Source of the DNA: Naegleria gruberi
Taxonomy: Eukaryota
Direction: 5' to 3' (one strand)
Assembly: GCA_000004985.1 (NCBI GenBank)
Contig: GG738931.1
DNA: 64,000 bases
Below are positions 3,978-63,964 of the stretch, in pieces (position 1 is the first letter of the stretch; each line of letters begins with the position of its first letter). The notes under the pieces are model-generated. The model saw only the letters and a program-made list of their open reading frames with translations. It was not told where the DNA came from and did no database searches. A program made the position numbers and the translations under genes.

Positions 3978-4013
3978 TGGAGTCATAGGGAATCGAACCC
4001 TAGACCTTCTGCA

Positions 4014-4044
<31 letters not shown>

Positions 4045-4050
4045 AACCCC
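3978..4050 (-). tRNA. tRNA-Ala (anticodon UGC)
   Basis: The reverse complement folds as a canonical cloverleaf with a G3:U70 pair, anticodon loop TTTGCAT, T-loop TTCGATT and discriminator A. An oligo-T Pol III terminator follows. Confidence 0.9.
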
Positions 4051-4621
4051 TTCTGTTATATTCCTTAATTTATTCATTAAGACATAAATATCGGCAATAT
4101 TAAATAAAAAAAATGTATCAGAAATGCCCAATTTGGAAAGAATAGTTATTTTAATGACAAGTATTTAAGAATTGACTTTCCCAAATCGATTGGAAAGATT
4201 ATTTTAAAAGAAATACAGAAATAACTCTCATCTTTCAAACAACAAATTTTAGAAAACATGTTTTTCAATGTTTATGAGCTGGATTCTTTAATCTTTTTGA
4301 AAGTTGGCAGGTCCACAAATATCAATAAAAATCGAATAAAGATTTTGTGAAATTGTATGAAAATTTGAAAGATTCTTTTCAAGATTTTCAACCTTGGAGA
4401 CGGCTATTATGGTTAATTGTGGATTATTATCGCAAAATTCTGGCAAAAAATATTTTTTTTTAATTACGGATTTGAATTATGGAAGTATTACATTAGGTAT
4501 TATGACGTGAAGAATTTTAATAAAATTATGTGAATTATTACAAATAAAAATTACAGTTTTTATTAGATTATTTATTATTGTTTTATTTTGAAATTAATTA
4601 ACTGAAAATTATTGCCAGTAT

Positions 4622-7369: not shown

Positions 7370-7419
7370 NNNNNNNNNNNNNNNNNNNNNNNNNNNNNNN
7401 NNNNNNNNNNNNNNNNNNN
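7370..7419. other. Assembly gap (50 N)
   Basis: Run of N. Confidence 1.
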
Positions 7420-33892: not shown

Positions 33893-34275
33893 TCATGATG
33901 AAAGATCTAAGGTAACATAATTATTTCCTATTTCCCTGGTAGTAAGAAGAAAGAGTAGGGGTTATCTGATGAATTTGTATATGAAAGTAGTAACAAGCTT
34001 GATATTCATTACTACTGATGTCTATCAACAAAATTTCACATTGCTGATGATGTTTACATATCANNNNNNNNNNNNNNNNNNNNNNNNNNNNNNNNNNNNN
34101 NNNNNNNNNNNNNCTATCTGAAGTTCATGATGAAAGATCTAAGGTAACATAATTATTTCCTAGGTTATCTGATGAATTTGTATATGAAAGTAGTAACAAG
34201 CTTGATGATATTCATTACTACTGATGTCTATCAACAAAATTTCACAATTGATGATGTTTACATATCAATTAAACG
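33893..34275. repeat. Direct tandem duplication (~170-230 bp per copy) flanking an assembly gap: copy A 33893..34063, copy B 34114..34275, ~90% identical with a 30-bp indel
   Basis: The strings catgatgaaagatctaaggtaacataattatttcct and ggttatctgatgaatttgtatatgaaagtagtaacaagcttgat...gatgtttacatatca occur on both sides of the N-run. Confidence 0.7.
34064..34113. other. Assembly gap (50 N)
   Basis: Run of N. Confidence 1.
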
Positions 34276-48927: not shown

Positions 48928-50882
48928 TTGAATTTTAAAAAAAATAATCATCACCAACTTGTTTCCATCACCATGCGAGTGACCGTTCCTGTGGTCCATC
49001 AAGAATCAGAAATCCCTCCCGAATTCAAACATGAAGACAATGATGAATATTGGTGTTTCCTAACAAACTTTGAATTTAGGGATTCAAGAACAACTTCATT
49101 GAAGAGTCCCGAATTTATTACTGAGAAGGGAGTTTCTCTCATGTTGACTGGTTATTTACTAACACCCGAAGAATATAAATCATCTCCTGATGAGAAGGGT
49201 GAATATTTTGTCAAGATTGTTAATTTAAGACAATGGGCTTTTGACCATGAGGATGAAACGAGAGGAATTTGGGTCGAATCTAAGAGACATTGGTTTAAAT
49301 TGATAAAGCCAACAAGGGAATTTAAAGTAATTTATGAATCGTTTGAGAAGAAGAGTAATATTTGGTTGGATTTACGACCTGTATTGACGAGATGGATTAA
49401 AAAGTTTGATAAATGTTCGGATGAAGATGTGAAAGCAGTGATAAATGATTTAACAATGGAATATGTGATGAAATCCATGAAAGTGAAAGGACATAGTGAG
49501 GAGGAGCTTATTGAAAATGCATTCTTTATTCATGATAAGGCAGTTCAAGATTTTGATACCTTTTCATTTGAGGACTCGTCAGAAAATCAACTTCTTAGAA
49601 CACCTTTTATGAAGGATTTGTTGGAATTGTCTTCTGAAAAGTCTAAAATTCCCATTATTGCTAAATCTCACTCAGTTGATAAAAAGGGGAAAGAAAAACA
49701 GGTTGTGACTGAAGAGGATTTTTCCTCTGATGATGAGGATATGGATGTAAAGATTGTTATAGACGATTGTTCCTCTTCAGAGGATGATGATGATGAGGAG
49801 TACTTTGTCACAGTTAAAGCTGGCCTTGAGGATGAACATAGTAAGGATGAACATGATGATGATGATGACGACTATGAGGAAACGTTAAAGAAAAAGAGAA
49901 CGAGTTCACAAGCAGCTAAAAGAAATACACCAGAAAAGAAGAGGCCATATGCTCGTAGAACCTCTAAAAAGAGAACACCAACAAAGAATGTTGACAACTC
50001 TGAGAATCAAAAAGAGATTGAAAAAGTCACACCTAAAAAGAGAAAAGAATCGACAATTAGTAGAGAAACTAATGATGACGATGAGGATTTCAATGAAAGT
50101 GAGGAAGAATACAGTTCTGAAAATGGAAAAACCAAACAAAAACGAAGGAAATTCGAAAAACCAAGAAAGGCTACTGTTTGTTATTTCCGTGAATATACTT
50201 CACAACCTGGTGTTCCAACTATGGAGGAGCTATTGAATCAAGAATTCACACCTCGTCTTATTACACAACTCAGTACTAAATATGAACCAGGTCTTGCGAT
50301 TCCAGGTTGCTTCAATTGTCACAGAAAGAGAATTATGTGTCTTAAGGAAAGACCAATTTGTTCTCATTGTCTTGAGGATGGGCTCTATTGTGAATACCCA
50401 TCAGCGTTGAAAGTTTGTCGTAAGTATTATTTAAATTCTTCTTGTTGTTCTCACTCTAATTAGCATGCATACCGTGTTCTTTGAAATCGCAAAAGGTTTG
50501 CAATAGAGAACTTCCTTGCAATCATTGTGAGAATGGTGAATGTTATTACTTTACATCAGATAATGGATTGCTGATTGGAGAAATGAAAATTGCAGCTCTA
50601 AAAGAATTATATGCTAAGATTGATGAAGAAAAAGCTGCAAAGGAACAATCCAGTAGTGATATTCTTGATAATTTGATAAAGGAAACAGCTCAAACAGCTG
50701 AACCTGAAGAGGTTGAGATAGTTGAGGAACATAATGAAGAACTAGAAAGAAATAGAGAACGAGCAGCTGCTCTTAGAGAAGAAATCAAGAAATTGAAAAA
50801 GATTGCCCAACAAGAGACAGCTTTAAATGAAAGGAAAAAGAAAGAATTGAAAGAGATATTTAATTCTTTGAGCTCAAAGTAG
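48928..50882 (+). CDS. Nuclear protein with an acidic/basic low-complexity region, tandem Zn(2)-C6 fungal-type binuclear cluster domains and a C-terminal coiled coil; 2 exons (intron ~50424..50467)
   Basis: CFNCHRKRIMCLKERPICSHCLEDGLYC = C-x2-C-x6-C-x6-C-x2-C-x6-C. Second cluster CIPCSLKSQKVCNRELPCNHCENGEC follows a GTAAGT...TAG intron. K/R-rich NLS-like runs are present. Confidence 0.6.
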
Positions 50883-56023: not shown

Positions 56024-57885
56024 ATGTCCAAACTCGATCTCGACTCCAAGGCCAAACAAGCCTTCGATGATGTGAGCAATTCCAAACTCACCTATGCCTT
56101 GTTGAAACACGAAGGTACCTCCAACAAGGTTATTGTTGCCTCCACCGGTGATGATATTTTGGATTTAATTGACGACTTGAATGATGGTACAATCATGTAT
56201 GCCTTGATTCGTTTCGTCATTAACGATGCTACCAAATTTGTCTATGTGGTAGGTTTTTAATTTACATCATCATGTTTATATATCACATTGCGATTAATAA
56301 TTGTTCTTATTTAAATTTAATTTTTGTGATGATCACATCGCACTCAACTGTGATGATTTTAATGAAAATATTAAAAATTTAATGATGATAATGATTGTGT
56401 GTGGAATTTAAATTTGACAACAAACACAGGGTTGGTGTCCTGAAGGTATTGCTAATCAAATCTTCAAAGGAAAGTTCCAAAACTGGAACAAGGATATGGA
56501 ATTCTATTTGTATGTTGTGTTTTCGAATAGTTGCAATTATTAACAGTTTTTACTTTCAACTTGTCAACTTATATGACATATAATTACACATCATCAAAAT
56601 GTCCAATGTGGAAAATTAATCAAATTCAACAACAAAATTTAAATTTCACAGGAAGGGAAGATACCACTTGTCAGTTTATGCTCGTAACGAAGAAGATATT
56701 GATCAAGCTTCTTGGATTAAGAAACTCAAAGTTGGTGCTGGTTCTTCCTACACACAAAGTTCAAATGCCAAGGATTTGACAATTTCACAAGCCAAGCAAA
56801 ATATTGCATCATCAAAGACCGATGTTAAAAAGACTGAAGTTGCGATTGATGACAGTGAAAGAAACAAATTCTGGGAAAAACAACAAGAAGAACTCAAGAA
56901 ACAAGAAGAAAAGAAGAAGCTCCCACCACCAAGATCTGACTATAAAAAGACAGATGAAAGAAATCAATTCTGGCAAGGTCAAAGTACCTCCACAACTAGT
57001 GGATCCACTGTTGTGAAGAGTAGTGATCGTATTAGTGAAATTCAACAAATCAAGAATAATAGTAATCAATTTTGGCAAAAGCAACAAGAACAACCAGTTC
57101 CAGAATCTGACAACAAACCAAAGGAAGTTGTTCGTGGAAACAAGGATTTGTTCAAAAAGTTCGAAAGCATGAGTGTTAAAACTGAAGAATCAAAACCTGT
57201 TGCCAGACAACCAATTTCAACTGGTGCTGCCAAGAAGCCAGTTTTCCAACCAAAGCACGAAGAACCAGTTTATGAGGAACCACAACATCATTATGAAGAA
57301 CCAGTTCAAGAAGAATCTCACTATGAACACTATGAAGAACCACAACAAGAAGAATCTCACTATGAGGAGCCACCACAACAAACTTATCATCAACCAAGAG
57401 TTCCACCTCCATTCCATCAACCACGTTATGATTCCGAAGAAGAAGAAGAGCCAGAACAAGAACCAGAACCTGTTCAAGAACCAGTTAACAATAAGCCATC
57501 TAAACCAAAAGGGTATGTTTTATTCAATAATTGATTACTGACATTTTAATAGATATTTGGAAAGACAAGTTGAACAAGGAAATATTTCTCCATCTCAAGC
57601 TGAAGAAATTATTGCAAAGCCAACCAAACTTCCACCTCCTCCAGTTCCAACCAAACCAAAGTATCCTGAATTGGTTGCTGTTTTTGATTTTGAGTAAGTA
57701 TTTTAAATATTTTGAAATTTGATTTTTTAACACATTACAACAGAGGTCAAGATGGTGAAGAACTTTCATTCGCTGAAGGTGATACCCTCTATCTCGTTCA
57801 AGATGAAGGTGAATGGTGGTTAGCTGAAGATACCAATGGTCAACAAGGTTACATTCCTTCAAACTATGTTGAATATAAAGAATAG
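56024..57885 (+). CDS. Abp1/drebrin-like actin-binding protein (N-terminal ADF-H domain, central charged/Pro-rich region, C-terminal SH3); 5 exons
   Basis: N-terminal ADF-H-like exon [17 protein letters not shown]...[18 protein letters not shown]. Central repeats of EEPQ/HYEEP. C-terminal SH3 after two short introns: [10 protein letters not shown]|[46 protein letters not shown]. Confidence 0.65.
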
Positions 57886-57914
57886 TAATTGTAATAATAA
57901 AAAACTCTTGTAAA

Positions 57915-59327
57915 TTATTTATTTTTAACTGCCAAATCATATCTATTTCTGTAATAAACCTTAACATCACCTCTTATGATGATGTGATATTCATTAATCT
58001 CATTCTCATTTCCAAAAATTGTAACTCTATCATCAACTTCCTCAGTTAAACTCTTTGTACAAAGATCAATACCTTCCCATGAATCATACAAAACAAGTGC
58101 CTTGTAATTGGATGCATCTTCTTCCTCATCGCTTTCCATTAAAAATCTACCAATCTCATCATCACTCAAATCGTCCAAGAGAGGAAGATTGACCTTCTTT
58201 GATTTCTTCTTTTCTGAAACAGGTGAAGCTCTCTTTGGTTTCTCACTCTCTGGAACCAGGTAAACGCTTCCCAATCCCTTACACTCAACAAATTCAATGC
58301 ACTCTGTTGGTTTCAAAACTAGAGAACATGTCTTTGAAAGCACCTTCTTTAAACTGTAGAAAAATATGGAATTATGATCAACCTTTTCCTTCTTACTCAC
58401 ATGTACATCATTGTAAAAGTTGTCAGTTTTAGTTCTTTCAGAGGAGAATTTCTCTCTCATGTTTTGATTTACAACTGGAGAAGGCAAAACATCTCTCCTT
58501 ACCTCTTCTGTCGAAATATCAATGACAAAATCAATATTTGCTCTACTCGATCTTGTACTCATTGAGAGAGGTTCCAATCTTGGTGTACCTTCTGTGGTAT
58601 CTAATGAAGGTGCTTCATCAAACTTTAGAGCTTCTGTGATATTGAGTGAACTTCTACTCTTTGAGATTTTCAGTTTTGGCAGTTCAACACTTTGCTCTGT
58701 TGTATGAACATGTAAAGGTGATATCCATGGATTGGCATCTTCTCCAGTGGGTGAAAGACTCATTGGTGTGTTTCTGAATGAGGAATATTGACGATGTTGA
58801 GGAATGAATAAATTTGAGGGAATCTGAACCGAAACATCAGCTGAGGATCTAGTTTTGAGTGGTTGTGGAATGGATGCAAGTGAAGTATGAGGTCGGTCAT
58901 CAAATTTAACTTCTTCAAAGTCGACATGTGTTGGTGTATGTATATCGTGCACTCTCTTTCTCCGAACCTTGCTATTATTTGAATTAGCTCTCCTCATAGA
59001 ACCTTCCTTAGTGGCCAAAACTTTATGCTGTTGAGCACAATTGGAAGGTGTTAATGATGCTTCTGTTCGATTATATAGGATTGCCTCTGAAAGACCCAAA
59101 TCTTCCAAGGAAAATTCACCATTCTTAGGGGATATATTTGTTGTTTTATGATGACTAGGTGTGCTGAGGGAGGAAGAGCTTCGTATGGTGCTTAATTTAT
59201 CTTGTTGTTGCTGTTGATGATGAGAGAATATTCCCAACTCAAAGTCATTATCTGAATTTTCTGTTATTGTCGATGAAGATGAATCACCCGAAGATAAAAC
59301 AGAAGTACTATAGGGCCTCTTATACAT
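57915..59327 (-). CDS. Ser-rich hypothetical protein (470 aa)
   Basis: Continuous ORF with an ATG start. Low-complexity S/T-rich N-terminal two thirds and a structured C-terminal ~120 aa. No family recognised. Confidence 0.45.
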   Translation of the reverse strand: MYKRPYSTSVLSSGDSSSSTITENSDNDFELGIFSHHQQQQQDKLSTIRSSSSLSTPSHHKTTNISPKNGEFSLEDLGLSEAILYNRTEASLTPSNCAQQHKVLATKEGSMRRANSNNSKVRRKRVHDIHTPTHVDFEEVKFDDRPHTSLASIPQPLKTRSSADVSVQIPSNLFIPQHRQYSSFRNTPMSLSPTGEDANPWISPLHVHTTEQSVELPKLKISKSRSSLNITEALKFDEAPSLDTTEGTPRLEPLSMSTRSSRANIDFVIDISTEEVRRDVLPSPVVNQNMREKFSSERTKTDNFYNDVHVSKKEKVDHNSIFFYSLKKVLSKTCSLVLKPTECIEFVECKGLGSVYLVPESEKPKRASPVSEKKKSKKVNLPLLDDLSDDEIGRFLMESDEEEDASNYKALVLYDSWEGIDLCTKSLTEEVDDRVTIFGNENEINEYHIIIRGDVKVYYRNRYDLAVKNK

Positions 59328-59931
59328 TTCGATGAATTCTGCTTAACTACCTTAATACACTTTGCGATTGAAAATAAAGAGAATCTTCTGTTTTAAATAA
59401 TGACGCCACTGCTGCTAATAGTGAATGTCTTGTTTTCTCACTTTTTTTTCTTCGTTTAATACTTATTAAAGCTCTATCATTTACAGATATAGATTCGCAT
59501 TATTAATTGTGCACAGAATCGTTCCATGTTTGGTGCTATGATAAACGACTATTGTACATCTGACGCAGCAAAAGCAATGTATGCTGTGGTAGAATATATT
59601 TTCCGTTTTATATTAAGGTTACAGAAACCCGATAATGATTGAAAGGAGGTTATTATAACTTTTGTTGATAGAAGCAAAATTTTGACAGAAAAATCAACAA
59701 ATCGTTGATGCAAGTATGAAAATTCTTTATTTCCAAACATGAAACAGTGTTGAATGATTCTTGTCTTTATGCGTATTGTCAGCATCTAAATTGTCAACTT
59801 ATTACAGACCTCAATAAAGGAAATGAGCTTTGACAAAAAACCTGAGAAATTGCTCAGTTACTTTTTTGAATGTAGGATTTTTAATTATTAAAATTCACAA
59901 AGCAATCGCTTGCAAGCTTTGTAGTTTTTTT

Positions 59932-60186
59932 ATAGTAGTGATGTGGTTTTGTTGAAAAGATGAATACCGATGATAGCTCAGCTGGTAGAGCATGGGACTG
60001 TAGCAAGAAAAACTGTCATCCTGTGGTCGGCGGTTCGATTCCGTCTCATCGGATACTTTTACCACACAAAGCAATTAATCAATTTTAATTATGACACTTG
60101 TTCAATCGAATTTTTAAGACACTTCTGCTTATTGTACAGTTTTGAATTCTATAAGATCCACATAACTCAAATTTTCTAAGCGAATA
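59932..60186 (+). repeat. Inverted-repeat copy 1: tRNA-Tyr plus ~35 bp upstream and ~135 bp downstream flank
   Basis: Homologous in inverted orientation to 62442..62675. The tRNA part is identical; the flanks are ~85-90% identical, with a 27-bp indel. Confidence 0.8.
59967..60053 (+). tRNA. tRNA-Tyr (anticodon GUA) with a 14-nt intron (60004..60017)
   Basis: CCGATGA acceptor, D-arm GCTC-AGCTGGTA-GAGC, anticodon loop CTGTAG|intron|A, variable loop TGGTC, T-loop TTCGATT, discriminator A. A TTTT terminator lies downstream. Confidence 0.85.
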
Positions 60187-60252
60187 TAAATAATTTTGTT
60201 TTAAGAAAAATGTATTATCTTCAGTACAGTTTACGTTTTACTTTTAAAAAAA

Positions 60253-61083
60253 ATGCTATGGGTAGAAATGGAGGTGGACATCCCACCAAAACAACAAGCA
60301 AAAAGAACACTCAAAGCCTTCGCTAAAATAATTCAGGTAAGGTGCCAAATAAGAAGACAATTTGACACAAGGCCAAAACAAATTGTTGGAGACAATATAG
60401 TGTCAGCAGCTAGATCAACGATCCTTGTTTATGTTGAGACAAACTCTAGAACAAAACTGGAAAATTTTTTGTTGGCTACTTACCACGCCTTCAAAAGATA
60501 TTCCCTGTTGTTTATTGCTGATACTCAAAACCAACATATAAGACAATCTGTTATACAGGCTCCTAGAAACCCTCCCACTAGTGGTAACGAAGACAGCAGT
60601 GACGATACCACATCTATCAAGAGCATTTCACTACCTGTACAAACAAATAATTCGCCCAGTAACAGTACTGATACTAAATGGGCTTTATTAGAAGCCTATT
60701 TAATTGAGTTGAAAAGAGTTCCTTCTGGCTCGGAATCAGGCAATATTTCTTCAAGTTACAACTTAAATCCAACAGAAGAAATTATTCATGATACCCATAA
60801 AAACAAACCAAAAGTTACATCACCACCAAAACCAATCAAACATTCTCCAACCCTACAAAGAGCTGTGATACATTTCAAATGGANNNNNNNNNNNNNNNNN
60901 NNNNNNNNNNNNNNNNNNNNNNNNNNNNNNNNNTTGGAGAATGTTTTGGATGCATTGATTAGATTTAATGGAGATGATGAAGCCAAGATTGGATATGCTT
61001 TTGAAAAACTAAGACTAAAAGATGACAGAACCGCAAAATCCATTACAAGATGGTTGTTTTCAACCTTATTGACTAAAGATTAG
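60253..61083 (+). CDS. Hypothetical protein; the CDS is interrupted by an assembly gap
   Basis: ORF with an A-rich start context. Contains a run of X from the N-gap. Confidence 0.4.
   Translation: MLWVEMEVDIPPKQQAKRTLKAFAKIIQVRCQIRRQFDTRPKQIVGDNIVSAARSTILVYVETNSRTKLENFLLATYHAFKRYSLLFIADTQNQHIRQSVIQAPRNPPTSGNEDSSDDTTSIKSISLPVQTNNSPSNSTDTKWALLEAYLIELKRVPSGSESGNISSSYNLNPTEEIIHDTHKNKPKVTSPPKPIKHSPTLQRAVIHFKWXXXXXXXXXXXXXXXXXLENVLDALIRFNGDDEAKIGYAFEKLRLKDDRTAKSITRWLFSTLLTKD
60884..60933. other. Assembly gap (50 N)
   Basis: Run of N. Confidence 1.
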
Positions 61084-61315
61084 ATTCGTTATGAATATTT
61101 CGATATACTTAAGTTGTATAAGCAACCTCAATTCCGAGTTTTAAAAACAATACTGGGAAAAGAGAGGTTCTGTTTAGTTTGGGTATTTCATCGTACCATC
61201 AATCACTGGAGAATCAATTAATGACGAATTAAGAATCAATTAATCAATTAAGATTTAAGATGTCTTTAAGTTTATATTATACACAATGTAAGGCTGACCT
61301 TCTCAATGAATATAA

Positions 61316-61364
61316 GCCGTCATAGCTCAGTTGGATAGAGAACAGGACTTCTAATCCTGGGGTC
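61316..61364 (+). pseudogene. Truncated tRNA-Arg(UCU): 5' acceptor strand, D-arm, anticodon arm and variable loop intact; T-arm and 3' acceptor strand absent
   Basis: GCCGTCA-TA-GCTC-AGTTGGATA-GAGA-A-CAGGA-CTTCTAA-TCCTG-GGGTC, then a non-tRNA sequence closing a GGGTC...GACCC stem (61360..61396). Confidence 0.55.
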
Positions 61365-61770
61365 ATTTTATCTATATTGGAAATAACATCAGACCCTTAG
61401 CTTGAATTTATTTTATTATTGTTGTTTTTTTGATCCTCATCATTAGCTCTGTAATCTGTTTCACATATAATTGTATCCATTATTGTTGGCCACCCTTAAC
61501 ATTGAACATTTTGATTTCAATGATTTGTTGTAATCATGAGCTCATGTTGTCAATCAAGGAGATGGGTTCGATCAATATCATTACAATCTCAATTTTCAAT
61601 AACTGGACCAAGGAAATTCATTTATAATTCAGATTTTATGATTATGAATGGCAACAATTTGTCAATTATTACTCTTTTTCCTTTGCAATTTTAGTAAAAT
61701 TAGTAATCGAAGAGTAAAAGATCTTATCGACGATGTTTGCCTTTTGTTCACTTTATTAAGGTAATTGAAT

Positions 61771-61889
61771 GGCTACGGCCATATCACGATGAATGCACCT
61801 CATCCCGTCCTATTTGAGAAGTTAAGCATCGTCGAGCCACATCAGTACTGAGGTTGGAGACAACTTGGGAACCTGTGGTGCTGTAGTCT
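61771..61889 (+). rRNA. 5S ribosomal RNA gene
   Basis: GGCTACGGCCATA...CATCCCGTCC...GAGAAGTTAAGC...GTACTGAGGTTGGAGACAAC...GGGAAC...GGTGCTGTAGTC matches the universal 5S consensus blocks. Helix I termini are complementary. A T5 terminator follows. Confidence 0.85.
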
Positions 61890-62148
61890 TTTTGGCTTTT
61901 GAAAACTGATAACTTTATTGAAATAATCCTTTTTTTATTTTCCTATAAACAACATGCTCATTCATCATTACAAAACATGAACCAAGTTTGTGTCTAGAAA
62001 CAAAAATTAGTTCATGACAGAATTTGTTTTGCAAGTCTGATCAGAACAGAACTACTTTCTTAAAATATAAATTTCTTTTCATGAGAATAAAAAACAATGA
62101 AGGTGGTTTGAAATCAAACAATAAGAAAAAAACAAAACGAACAACATA

Positions 62149-62379
62149 ATGCAATTATTTGTCAAAACACTCACTGGAAGAACTATCACTTTGGAAGTTG
62201 AATCTAATGATTCAATTGAAAATGTGAAAAGAAAAGTACAAGATAAGGAAGGAATTTCACCAGATCAACAAAGACTCATCTTTGGTGGAAAACAATTGGA
62301 AGATGGAAGAACTATTGGTGATTACAATCTTCAAAAGGATTCAACTCTTCATTTAGTATTGAGATTGAGAGGTGGTTGA
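62149..62379 (+). CDS. Monomeric ubiquitin variant (76 aa, ~83% identical to canonical ubiquitin; free C-terminal GG followed by a stop)
   Basis: [76 protein letters not shown] differs from canonical ubiquitin at 13 positions, including K11R. K48 and K63 are retained. Confidence 0.75.
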
Positions 62380-62441
62380 ATAATCAAAGTCAAAGATTCT
62401 CAATTATTGTATATAAATTGATATTAGTACAATTTCTTTTT

Positions 62442-62675
62442 GGAATGTTCGCTTAGAAAATTTGAGTTAGGTGGATCTAATAGAATTCAAAACTGTAAAA
62501 TAAGCAGAAGTGTCATAAAAATTCGATTAATTGCTTTGTGTGGTAAAAGTATCCGATGAGACGGAATCGAACCGCCGACCACAGGATGACAGTTTTTCTT
62601 GCTACAGTCCCATGCTCTACCAGCTGAGCTATCATCGGTATTCATCTGTTCTAAAAAACCACACAACTACTATCA
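62442..62675 (-). repeat. Inverted-repeat copy 2 of the tRNA-Tyr locus (lacks a 27-bp segment present in copy 1)
   Basis: Reverse complement of 59932..60186. Confidence 0.8.
62552..62638 (-). tRNA. tRNA-Tyr (GUA) with a 14-nt intron, identical to the copy at 59967..60053
   Basis: The reverse complement is base-for-base identical to the plus-strand tRNA-Tyr, including the intron caagaaaaactgtc. Confidence 0.85.
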
Positions 62676-62869
62676 AAAATTTCTCTGTAATTTGTTTAAT
62701 GGCTTCTCAATGAAGAAACCTAACCGGCACAGTATTTGGCCCAATCAAATTATTATAATTCTCCAGTTAAATAATCAACATCCATTACTTTAGAACTCAG
62801 CTTGCTGTTGGGGCCCAAATTATTTTGTTTCTCAAACGAAAAAAATACCAACAAATACGAATCCACAAG

Positions 62870-63964
62870 ATGAAACTATTCGCCAAATCTTCCACACTTG
62901 ATCAAGCACCACTTGAAAGACTTTGTGATGATGAATTCCATAATATTTTTGAATATACAAACATCAAGGAGGATAGAGAAGCAAATTTTAACATTTCATT
63001 GGTGAACAAACGATTAAACAAATTGGCTTCCTCCGATTTGTATTGGAAATTCATTCTTCATCATTATCCTAATCAAGAGGAAATTAAGCAACTTTCTTCT
63101 CCTTTGAAATCCAATCTAATAGAAACAAGAAAGAAGAAATTCTTGAAATTCGATACTTCACTAATTCAATATTTATCAGCGCCTCCTTTTCTTTTATTTC
63201 TTTTACTGATTGCATTCTTATTTGTCATGTCAATAATTTTCATTCCAGTGGCATATTTCACTTTCAAAGATTTTGTCTGTTATAGAAAGTTAATTTCCAA
63301 ACAAACTATTCAATTATTTAACACTTCACCATTGAATGGAACTTGTGTTTATTGTAATGTTTCTAATAATGATCATTTGAATGAGAAATTGGATATTGTT
63401 GAGTGTAATTTCACAATGAGTGGAGATCCCCTTTCATATCCATGTTGCATGAAAGAGAAGAATTGCATCTATGACAAGTATCCACTCAACATGTCTTCTT
63501 TTCGATATGAAATACAGAGCTATGGAATTCAAAAAGGTAAAACCATGTTCAATTCCACCTATTTCTATGATTGCCTCGATATGGAATGTCAACCCAGCAA
63601 ATACCAAGATTATTACACATATTGCCTCTCTCAAAAAAAACCAGGTGAATTCGAAATAGATACAATATCATTACCTATCTTGTCATTCATAATGATTGGT
63701 TGTACTGTTGTCATTGTATTGATTCCATTTCTCGCTATTATTGCTCATTATTGTTTATTGCCATTTTCAAAGAGTTTGTTTTTTTGTTTGTATTGGAGAA
63801 GTTGTTTTTCAGAGGAAATTGACAAGACACATGTGAAATTGGACACAAGAAAACGAAATGGATGTTCATCTTTCTGGTTGAGTTTGTTTTTGTGGCATTT
63901 GAATATGGCAAATGTTTACATACGTATTGAAAAGGAAGAACAAACTTCAAAAGAAGAGATTTAG
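62870..63964 (+). CDS. Membrane protein with an F-box-like N-terminus, two hydrophobic segments and a Cys-rich ectodomain-like region (hypothetical)
   Basis: First true ATG at 62870, after an A-run. LERLCDDEFHNIFEYT...LVNKRLNKLASSDLYWKFIL is F-box-like. Hydrophobic segments LLFLLLIAFLFVMSIIFIPVAYF and ILSFIMIGCTVVIVLIPFLAIIAHYCLL. Confidence 0.45.
   Translation: MKLFAKSSTLDQAPLERLCDDEFHNIFEYTNIKEDREANFNISLVNKRLNKLASSDLYWKFILHHYPNQEEIKQLSSPLKSNLIETRKKKFLKFDTSLIQYLSAPPFLLFLLLIAFLFVMSIIFIPVAYFTFKDFVCYRKLISKQTIQLFNTSPLNGTCVYCNVSNNDHLNEKLDIVECNFTMSGDPLSYPCCMKEKNCIYDKYPLNMSSFRYEIQSYGIQKGKTMFNSTYFYDCLDMECQPSKYQDYYTYCLSQKKPGEFEIDTISLPILSFIMIGCTVVIVLIPFLAIIAHYCLLPFSKSLFFCLYWRSCFSEEIDKTHVKLDTRKRNGCSSFWLSLFLWHLNMANVYIRIEKEEQTSKEEI

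Follow-up and report, generated by a model that had tools for sequence, protein, structure and literature searches.

The genome of Naegleria gruberi contains 924 tRNA genes (tDNAs) in 41 Mb, and 84% of them are not clustered (PMC2888827). In the same survey (Bermudez-Santana et al. 2010), four pairs of same-isoacceptor genes in plus/minus orientation were observed within 1 kb, versus 0.51 expected (PMC2888827, supplementary file 2), so opposite-orientation duplicates of one type of tRNA gene are a known pattern in this species. In the 64-kb window that we analyzed (the whole stretch of N. gruberi DNA), two tRNA-Tyr(GUA) genes have a similar arrangement: the same gene occurs twice, close together and on opposite strands. 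Unlike the surveyed pairs, these genes are 2.5 kb apart, which is beyond the survey's cluster cut-off of 1 kb, so they were not counted there. They also enclose other genes, and they share homologous flanks, a property that the survey left aside. We found no description of this inverted-repeat locus in the literature.

Removal of the intron by a splicing endonuclease and a ligase is general for eukaryotic nuclear tRNA-Tyr genes, and the tRNA-Tyr genes of Saccharomyces cerevisiae carry a 14-nt intron. Each of the two Naegleria copies is a complete and intact gene of this kind. Copy 1 (59967..60053, + strand; anticodon at 60000-60002 and intron at 60004-60017) and copy 2 (62552..62638, - strand; anticodon at 62603-62605 and intron at 62588-62601) each score 54.8 bits against Rfam RF00005, versus a gathering score of 29 for the family. 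In the Rfam match of each copy, the anticodon loop has an insert of 17 nt. By direct reading, the intron is 14 nt (CAAGAAAAACTGTC) and lies 3' of position 37: the loop runs C-T-GTA-G, then the intron, then A38, which is the canonical 37/38 intron site. The pre-tRNA intron would be removed by tRNA splicing endonuclease and ligase. Both copies also contain an exact B box, GGTTCGATTCC (60032-60042 on the + strand and 62563-62573 on the - strand; B box scan), and an A box, TAGCTCAGCTG, with two mismatches relative to a simple consensus. A T4 run that is a putative Pol III terminator lies 3 nt past each gene (60057..60060 on the + strand for copy 1 and 62545-62548 on the - strand for copy 2; sequence TACTTTTAC). 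Given the internal A and B boxes and this stop, both copies are probably transcribed as independent Pol III genes. With the GUA anticodon, the 14-nt intron after position 37, the A and B boxes, and the oligo-T run, there is nothing unusual about these genes as compared to other eukaryotic nuclear tRNA-Tyr(GUA) genes such as those of S. cerevisiae, except that the intron's sequence is specific to Naegleria. (ARAGORN in bacterial mode reported only a tRNA-Ala and missed both of these intron-containing genes.) The two copies are identical at 87 of 87 nt in a global alignment and both loci match Rfam, so the earlier note was correct in describing them as base-identical, including the intron.

The similarity continues past the genes. 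The repeat search, the alignments, and blastn identify an inverted repeat whose left arm is at 59926..60187 (+ strand; 262 nt, consisting of 41 nt of upstream flank, the tRNA-Tyr gene, and 134 nt of downstream flank) and whose right arm is at 62445..62679 (- strand; 235 nt). When 59800-62800 was compared to the whole window with blastn, the sole match was this pair of arms (E = 1.8e-89). The repeat search splits the arms into two segments (I1, 161 nt and 95% identity; I2, 84 nt and 94% identity) with an offset of 27 nt between them. In global alignments, the upstream flanks have 6 mismatches across 41 nt (85% identity; for example, at 59951, 59953, and 59957), the downstream flanks have 5 mismatches across 107 aligned nt (95% identity) plus a 27-nt indel, and the longest perfectly identical run between the arms is 119 nt. 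The flank duplication that the earlier note described is therefore real, but the upstream part is longer than the approximately 35 nt that it gave and the downstream part is more similar than its 85-90%. Loss of the flank similarity upon careful alignment had been named beforehand as a refuting observation; the similarity survives global alignment. Overall, the repeat search, Rfam, the alignment, and blastn agree that the inverted duplication extends past the tRNA-Tyr genes into both non-coding flanks and brackets the genes discussed below, as proposed.

At the outer edges of the arms, the similarity stops abruptly, and at the inner edges, it fades over about 30 nt; the sequences beyond are unrelated. 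In a permissive blastn alignment, weak similarity continues for about 28 nt further inward (to 60215 and 62413). A larger inverted duplication that has decayed was rejected, as these ~28 nt at the inner edge are all that sensitive blastn gains. Because the homology has sharp ends with unrelated sequence beyond them, the arms represent paralogous loci, rather than alleles or a collapsed assembly. And because the shared sequence takes in 41 nt of upstream flank and passes through the T4 run, copying at the DNA level is favored over an RNA-mediated process. We infer that one complete tRNA-Tyr(GUA) unit in the nuclear genome of N. gruberi was duplicated at the DNA level and in inverted orientation, most likely locally (we would put the probability at roughly 0.7). 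The duplicated unit would reach from roughly -41 to +134, counted from the tRNA-Tyr gene.

The arms might instead belong to a mobile element, either as the terminal inverted repeats (TIRs) of a foldback or TIR transposon 2.75 kb in length or, individually, as tRNA-derived SINEs. Terminal inverted repeats of 235-262 nt are indeed present, and the sequences just outside of the arms (CTTTGTAGTT and CTCTGTAATT) are alike at 8 of 10 positions, though with a 3-nt offset, so that any target-site duplication would be imperfect and its two copies would not be in register. A transposase, which an autonomous element would encode, is not recognizable among the ORFs, and the interior ORF has neither a Pfam match nor a homolog. 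In a SINE, the homology is expected to begin at the 5' end of the tRNA and to include a body transcribed by Pol III read-through that ends in a tail of A-rich sequence or simple repeats, and target-site duplications should be present. Here, the homology begins 41 nt upstream of the tRNA-Tyr gene, the T4 run follows just 3 nt after the gene, and the arms have no A-rich or simple-repeat tail. We rejected both types of element on these grounds, which largely refutes a mobile origin, and we consider it extremely unlikely.

The two tRNA-Tyr genes are convergent, with their 3' flanks pointing into an interior of 2.26 kb. Every feature that the earlier note placed there (a hypothetical coding sequence, a truncated tRNA-Arg(UCU), a 5S rRNA gene, and a ubiquitin variant) was recovered from Rfam, Pfam, or the list of ORFs, and all four are on one strand. 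The first is an orphan ORF of 276 codons (60253..61083, + strand). It has no match in Pfam and no homolog among 1.84 billion representative proteins, and it appears to be unannotated because the UniProt identifiers of the adjacent genes run consecutively. The second is a truncated tRNA-Arg(UCU) pseudogene (61316..61365, + strand; 21.4 bits, E = 0.57 in Rfam). The sub-threshold match spans 61316-61391 (21.4 bits, versus a cut-off of 29) and is tRNA-like in its 5' two-thirds only. This relic retains the 5' strand of the acceptor stem, the D arm, the anticodon arm (with CTTCTAA in the loop, or TCT for arginine), and the variable region, and then runs into TTTT; the T arm and the 3' acceptor strand are missing. 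It is not a split or permuted tRNA gene, as neither a 3' half nor a TGACGGC strand is found nearby. (A scan for bacterial-type promoters and terminators reported "terminators" here, but these are the anticodon stem of the tRNA-Arg relic, and such a scan is irrelevant for a eukaryote.) Next is a full-length 5S rRNA gene (61771..61889, + strand; Rfam RF00001, 97.6 bits), which is followed by TTTT. The last is a stand-alone gene for a ubiquitin-like protein of 76 amino acids (62149..62379, + strand), which is an exact match to NAEGRDRAFT_44880 (XP_002669132.1). The protein belongs to Pfam PF00240 (E = 7.3e-30), is identical to canonical ubiquitin at 63 of 76 positions (83%, by BLASTP), and ends in RGG. 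Polyubiquitins dominate the results of a homology search with this protein, and we did not find an orthologous locus among them. Another protein from the window exactly matches N. gruberi NAEGRDRAFT_75952, and these two exact matches identify the window as nuclear DNA of N. gruberi.

The orphan ORF is interrupted by a run of 50 N at 60884-60933. The genome is a draft, and these Ns separate the two arms, so an assembly error could have joined one tRNA-Tyr locus, or its two alleles, in inverted orientation across the run. If the run is a true scaffold gap, then how its two sides are oriented relative to each other depends on the mate pairs used by the assemblers. The window has three N runs, each exactly 50 nt long, so they may be masks instead of gaps, and the reading frame of the ORF continues across the run, which weakly supports the orientation as given. 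Furthermore, the arms differ from each other at 11 positions and by the 27-nt indel, and the sequence to the left and right of each arm is unique and unrelated, whereas alleles would remain homologous past the arms. An assembly artefact is thus highly improbable.

If the pair arose by duplication, then the differences between the arms give some indication of how each part has evolved. Summing both sides, there are 11 substitutions in 148 nt of flank (7.4%), and at this rate, the chance of seeing no differences in the 87 nt of the tRNA is about 0.001. Because the genes are free of differences while their flanks diverge, and because both score 54.8 bits and have an exact B box, both copies appear to be under constraint. 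The flanks would have drifted neutrally from their common ancestor, with 7.4% substitutions and one deletion of 27 nt, and purifying selection, possibly with help from gene conversion, would have kept the tRNA-Tyr genes identical. A second N. gruberi-like strain gives a sense of scale: its ENA contig L001 (ERZ929261 k127_5516) is 98.3% identical to 56272-59809 of the window and ends there, leaving 117 nt between it and the left arm. Intergenic divergence between the two strains is 2.1%. Since the divergence of the arm flanks is about 3.5 times as high, the arms were probably not duplicated very recently.

The 27-nt segment that is present in the left arm only (60077..60103, + strand) has the microhomology AATC at its borders and is the first of two units in an imperfect tandem repeat; the second is at 60104-60130 (+ strand). 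The two units are identical at 21 of 30 alignment columns, and just 1 of 2,000 shuffles scored as well. The earlier note had viewed this as a 27-bp tandem duplication in copy 1 or, alternatively, as a deletion in copy 2. There is indeed an imperfect tandem repeat at the indel, but its units have diverged much more than the arms, which favors the deletion. Specifically, the units differ from each other by about 25-30% and the arms by about 5-7%, so the tandem repeat is probably older than the duplication of the arms. Most likely, copy 2 lost one unit between the AATC microhomologies.

In Dictyostelium discoideum, an "ex-B box" is located downstream of tRNA genes, and the arms of the Naegleria repeat also have conserved sequence 3' of the tRNA gene. 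The idea that this flank carries an extra B box or another shared regulatory element, which the earlier note had raised, did not hold up. With up to two mismatches allowed, there is no match to the B box consensus GGTTCGANNCC in 60054-60187 or 62445-62551, even though the window as a whole has 1.2 of them per kb. The conserved 3' flanks have no Rfam match at E ≤ 1, and they do not fold more stably than shuffled sequences (z = +1.45 and +0.34). A structured RNA or snoRNA was discarded as well, given the empty Rfam search and the positive z-scores. In contrast to the ex-B box, the conservation is uniform, as in a duplicate, instead of motif-like, and B-box-like sequence is absent. Our best reading is that the similarity of the flanks would be leftover ancestry and not regulation.

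Low-copy inverted repeats are substrates for non-allelic homologous recombination, which yields inversions. Here too, inverted arms surround a unique segment. The tRNA-Tyr arms are short, with 235-262 nt and an identical core of 119 nt, and are known from one assembly. The enclosed segment might occasionally serve as a substrate for inversion by homologous recombination, and from the sequence, such an inversion is possible. It would be a bigger step to propose that the convergent pair is maintained for a function, either as a recombination switch for the segment with the 5S and ubiquitin-like genes or as a pair of chromatin boundaries that shield it. The inverted arms and their identical core permit this geometry, and tDNAs serve as barriers in yeasts, which might be taken as a precedent. 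However, the flanks are decaying (with 11 substitutions and the 27-nt indel) instead of being homogenized, no recombinase gene is found nearby, the ORFs close to the arms have no Pfam matches, and the four interior features share a strand, like ordinary genes. We regard a maintained function as very unlikely; the palindrome-like geometry probably has no dedicated role.

Local duplication should also be compared to a scenario in which the arms belong to a unit of about 260 bp that was dispersed among many or all of the tRNA-Tyr genes of N. gruberi after a burst of DNA-level tDNA amplification, so that the inverted geometry is incidental. The unit is sharply bounded and holds an entire transcription unit, and 924 tDNAs in 41 Mb, 84% of them unclustered, imply many recent dispersed duplications (PMC2888827). 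Within the 64-kb window, however, blastn finds the arm flank nowhere else, and neither the tRNA-Ala gene nor the tRNA-Arg fragment has flanks related to it. Also, from the total of 924, we estimate that tRNA-Tyr genes number a few dozen across the 41 Mb, so two of them are unlikely to be 2.5 kb apart by chance, which favors a local event. We consider the dispersed scenario to be unlikely.

Searches of sequence collections did not identify other copies. Exact scans with an intron-spanning 33-mer from tRNA-Tyr gave 0 matches in metagenome contigs, and a 31-mer from the 5' exon gave 0 matches in collections of metagenome, genome, and viral contigs. A composite protein query, which joined six-frame pieces of the arms with the interior ORF and an ORF from the right flank, was designed to catch spurious ORFs that had been called over tRNA-Tyr loci of other assemblies, and returned nothing at E ≤ 0.1. 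By exact look-up, none of three arm-spanning ORFs are in the protein cluster collection.

Taken alone, this tRNA-Tyr pair matters little: it is an unremarkable outcome of tRNA gene duplication, given that the genome has over 900 such genes. It is a clean example of the copying of a tRNA gene at the DNA level, with both flanks, in a protist with an inflated complement of tDNAs. For annotators, a short inverted repeat with a possible gap between its arms means that the orientation of the assembly is worth checking. A more ambitious proposal is that the ~260-bp cassette (-41 to +134) is a discrete unit of DNA-level duplication through which the tRNA genes reached ~900 copies, and that the convergent same-type pairs (4 versus 0.5 expected within 1 kb) are the footprint of an inverted-duplication mechanism linked to replication or repair at Pol III genes; in a weaker variant, the pair would serve the segment with the 5S and ubiquitin-like genes as a flip-flop or a boundary. 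This is speculative, and we think that it is quite improbable. The locus would matter more if the enclosed segment occurred in both orientations, or if a genome-wide survey showed that the tDNAs of Naegleria have generally expanded through such inverted cassettes.

Two tRNA-Tyr(GUA) genes lie close together in the region that we read directly (59700-62900): copy 1 at 59967-60053 (+) and copy 2 at 62552-62638 (-). Each scores 54.8 bits in Rfam, for which the gathering score for tRNA is 29; ARAGORN in bacterial mode reported neither. The Rfam alignment places a 17-nt insertion in both anticodon loops. Read by eye and checked with a script, the loop is C-T-G-T-A-G, then CAAGAAAAACTGTC, then A, so the anticodon is GUA (Tyr) and the canonical 37/38 position carries a 14-nt intron (60004-60017 on the plus strand and, in mirror image, 62588-62601 on the minus strand). 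A motif scan found the exact B box GGTTCGATTCC in each gene, and TTTT begins 3 nt past each 3' end. The two genes converge, their 3' flanks turned towards the 2257-nt interior, and they are identical at 87/87 positions (MAFFT and global alignment).

The repeat search reported a 161-nt inverted pair (95% identity) and an 84-nt one (94%), with a 27-nt offset between them, which MAFFT and global alignment joined into a single pair of arms: left, 59926-60187 (+, 262 nt), and right, 62445-62679 (-, 235 nt). There are 6 mismatches in the 41 nt of upstream flank and 5 in 107 aligned nucleotides of downstream flank, plus a 27-nt indel; uninterrupted identity reaches 119 nt (59958-60076). When 59800-62800 was compared to the whole 64-kb window with blastn, the arm pair was the only match (E = 1.8e-89), a similarity far beyond chance. 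In a permissive search, the outer edge of the homology was sharp, and the inner edge gained only about 28 nt of weak similarity. The inverted tRNA-Tyr duplication with flanks that the earlier note had proposed is thus upheld, with small corrections from the alignments to its coordinates and identities.

The homology takes in 41 nt of sequence 5' of the mature tRNA and extends 134 nt beyond the T4 run, which implies copying at the DNA level and not via a Pol III transcript. A SINE-type origin is excluded on the same grounds (the upstream flank is included and the homology continues past the T4 run), and we consider any other transposon origin of the arms very improbable. Each arm has unrelated unique sequence on both sides, so these are paralogous loci and not alleles or a collapsed repeat; that the inverted arms are an artefact of assembly is similarly improbable. 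Substitutions between the arms affect 11/148 flank positions (7.4%) versus 0/87 in the gene, which has a probability of about 0.001 at the flank rate. This contrast indicates that both genes are constrained, and both copies are probably functional. The 32 flank nucleotides within the identical run (P about 0.08 from the flank rate) are not on their own enough to call for gene conversion.

The one related sequence retrieved, the ENA metagenome contig L001 (ERZ929261, k127_5516), bears on the age of the duplication. It represents a second N. gruberi-like strain in a metagenome assembly (underlying run ERR1078381). L001 is 98.3% identical to 56272-59809 over 3.5 kb, reaches to within 117 nt of the left arm, and encodes a homologue 99% identical to the left-flank protein. 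Substitutions amount to 2.1% in the 482-nt intergenic part, which also has 29 gap positions, and 0.9% in coding sequence. Divergence between the arm flanks is about 3.5-fold that of the intergenic part of L001, so the duplication is probably older than the split of the two strains, if neutral rates are similar.

The 27-nt indel (60077-60103, +) is present in the left arm only. Together with the next 27 nt, it makes up an imperfect tandem repeat (21/30 columns identical), whose score was equalled in 1 of 2000 shuffles. The single unit in the right arm matches the second left unit at 26/27 positions, and the two left units are far more diverged from each other than the arms are. From this we infer that the tandem repeat is older than the arm duplication and that one unit was lost from the right arm between AATC microhomologies. 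A deletion in copy 2, which the earlier note gave as its alternative, is thus favored over the tandem duplication in copy 1 that it preferred.

An extra B box or other shared regulatory element had also been suggested for the conserved 3' flank. Neither arm's flank has a B-box-like site with up to two mismatches (the window-wide density is 1.2 per kb) or an Rfam match at E ≤ 1, and predicted folding of the flanks is no more stable than that of their shuffled versions (z = +1.45 and +0.34). Conservation is uniform and not motif-like. The flank shows no sign of a functional element, which counts against the suggestion, and we conclude that its similarity is best read as residual ancestry.

Alternatively, the arm unit might be a cassette common to N. 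gruberi tRNA-Tyr genes generally. Within the window, blastn found no arm flank at the tRNA-Ala gene (3978-4050) or at the tRNA-Arg fragment. Exact tRNA-Tyr sequence patterns had no matches in three contig collections (metagenome, genome, and viral), nor did a composite six-frame query for spurious ORFs over tRNA-Tyr loci; the comparison of N. gruberi flanks thus covered the tRNA loci of the window. If the family has a few dozen members in 41 Mb (our estimate from the total of 924 tDNAs), two copies 2.5 kb apart are unlikely by chance, so we favor local duplication and consider the cassette unlikely.

The interior contents listed in the earlier note were recovered by Rfam, Pfam, and ORF listing. 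The full-length 5S rRNA gene (61771-61889, +; 97.6 bits) is followed by TTTT. The tRNA-Arg(UCU) fragment (61316-61365, +; sub-threshold at 21.4 bits, E = 0.57) is 405 nt upstream of it on the same strand. It aligns over the 5' acceptor strand, D arm, and anticodon arm (loop CTTCTAA, UCU = Arg), and we found no T arm or 3' acceptor strand nearby; it is a truncated pseudogene. Its A box TAGCTCAGTTG is near consensus (1 mismatch), and TTTT cuts it off exactly past the variable region, which looks like a clean 3' truncation and not gradual decay. The 76-codon ubiquitin-family ORF (62149-62379, +; PF00240, 7e-30) is NAEGRDRAFT_44880 by exact look-up. The protein of this stand-alone, single-unit gene is 83% (63/76) identical to canonical ubiquitin, with changes including K11R, P37S, and A46G but none at K48, K63, or the C-terminal RGG. 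Such divergence is unusual for ubiquitin. Further N. gruberi ubiquitin-like "predicted proteins" were among the homology-search matches (P0020 and P0064).

The hypothetical coding sequence is a 276-codon ORF (60253-61083, +) with no Pfam domain and no homologs among 1.84 billion representative proteins. It appears to be unannotated, because the flanking genes have consecutive UniProt identifiers (D2W3I2 and D2W3I3). With stop codons at an estimated 7% or so of codon positions at this composition, an ORF of this length is very unlikely by chance; either the annotation missed it, or it is an orphan gene. It spans 50 N, across which the frame is kept. This is the third of three runs of exactly 50 N (7370-7419, 34064-34113, and 60884-60933), about 26.7-26.8 kb apart; being of one length, they look like placeholder gaps or masked stretches, not gaps of measured size.

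The ORF in the left flank (57915-59327, -) matches a "predicted protein [Naegleria gruberi]" from end to end at 100% identity and is NAEGRDRAFT_75952 by exact look-up; it and NAEGRDRAFT_44880 are on one 138,333-bp contig. The window is about 33% G+C, with long, closely spaced ORFs. The ORF at 48928-50463 (+) matches both DNMT1-RFD (replication foci; 8e-9) and a fungal-type Zn2Cys6 cluster (9e-6), an unusual pairing in a heterolobosean protein.

Every tRNA-type gene in the window is preceded at short distance by ATGAATA on the sense strand: at -7 to -1 of copy 1 (59960-59966, +) and copy 2 (62639-62645, -), -10 to -4 of the tRNA-Arg fragment (61306-61312, +), and -27 to -21 of tRNA-Ala (4071-4077, -). 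Compare TTGAATG at -7 to -1 of the 5S gene (61764-61770, +). Across both strands there are 36 matches versus 27.5 expected from shuffles. Roughly 0.04 cases would be expected of three independent loci having the motif in upstream windows of about 40 nt, for a motif picked post hoc. One possibility is that ATGAATA serves Naegleria Pol III genes as an upstream or start-site element.

In a published survey, N. gruberi had 924 tDNAs (883 tRNA genes and 41 pseudogenes), just 16% of which had a neighboring tDNA within 1 kb (Bermudez-Santana et al. 2010, PMC2888827). Same-isoacceptor pairs within 1 kb numbered 8 (++), 4 (+-), and 0 (-+), versus random expectations of 1.02, 0.51, and 0.51 (PMC2888827). 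With 4 (+-) pairs against 0.51 expected, opposite-strand genes of the same type are a recognised, over-represented pattern in this genome. The spacing of our pair exceeds the survey's 1-kb cut-off. Our literature search turned up no account of this locus. We regard a functional role of the pair as flip-flop or boundary as very doubtful. The arms are real, well-defined, and ordinary: a convergent duplicated pair in a tDNA-rich protist genome, and a fresh instance of a known pattern. The finding would have wider import if a genome-wide survey showed that tDNAs generally expand by way of the cassette, or if the interior occurred in both orientations.
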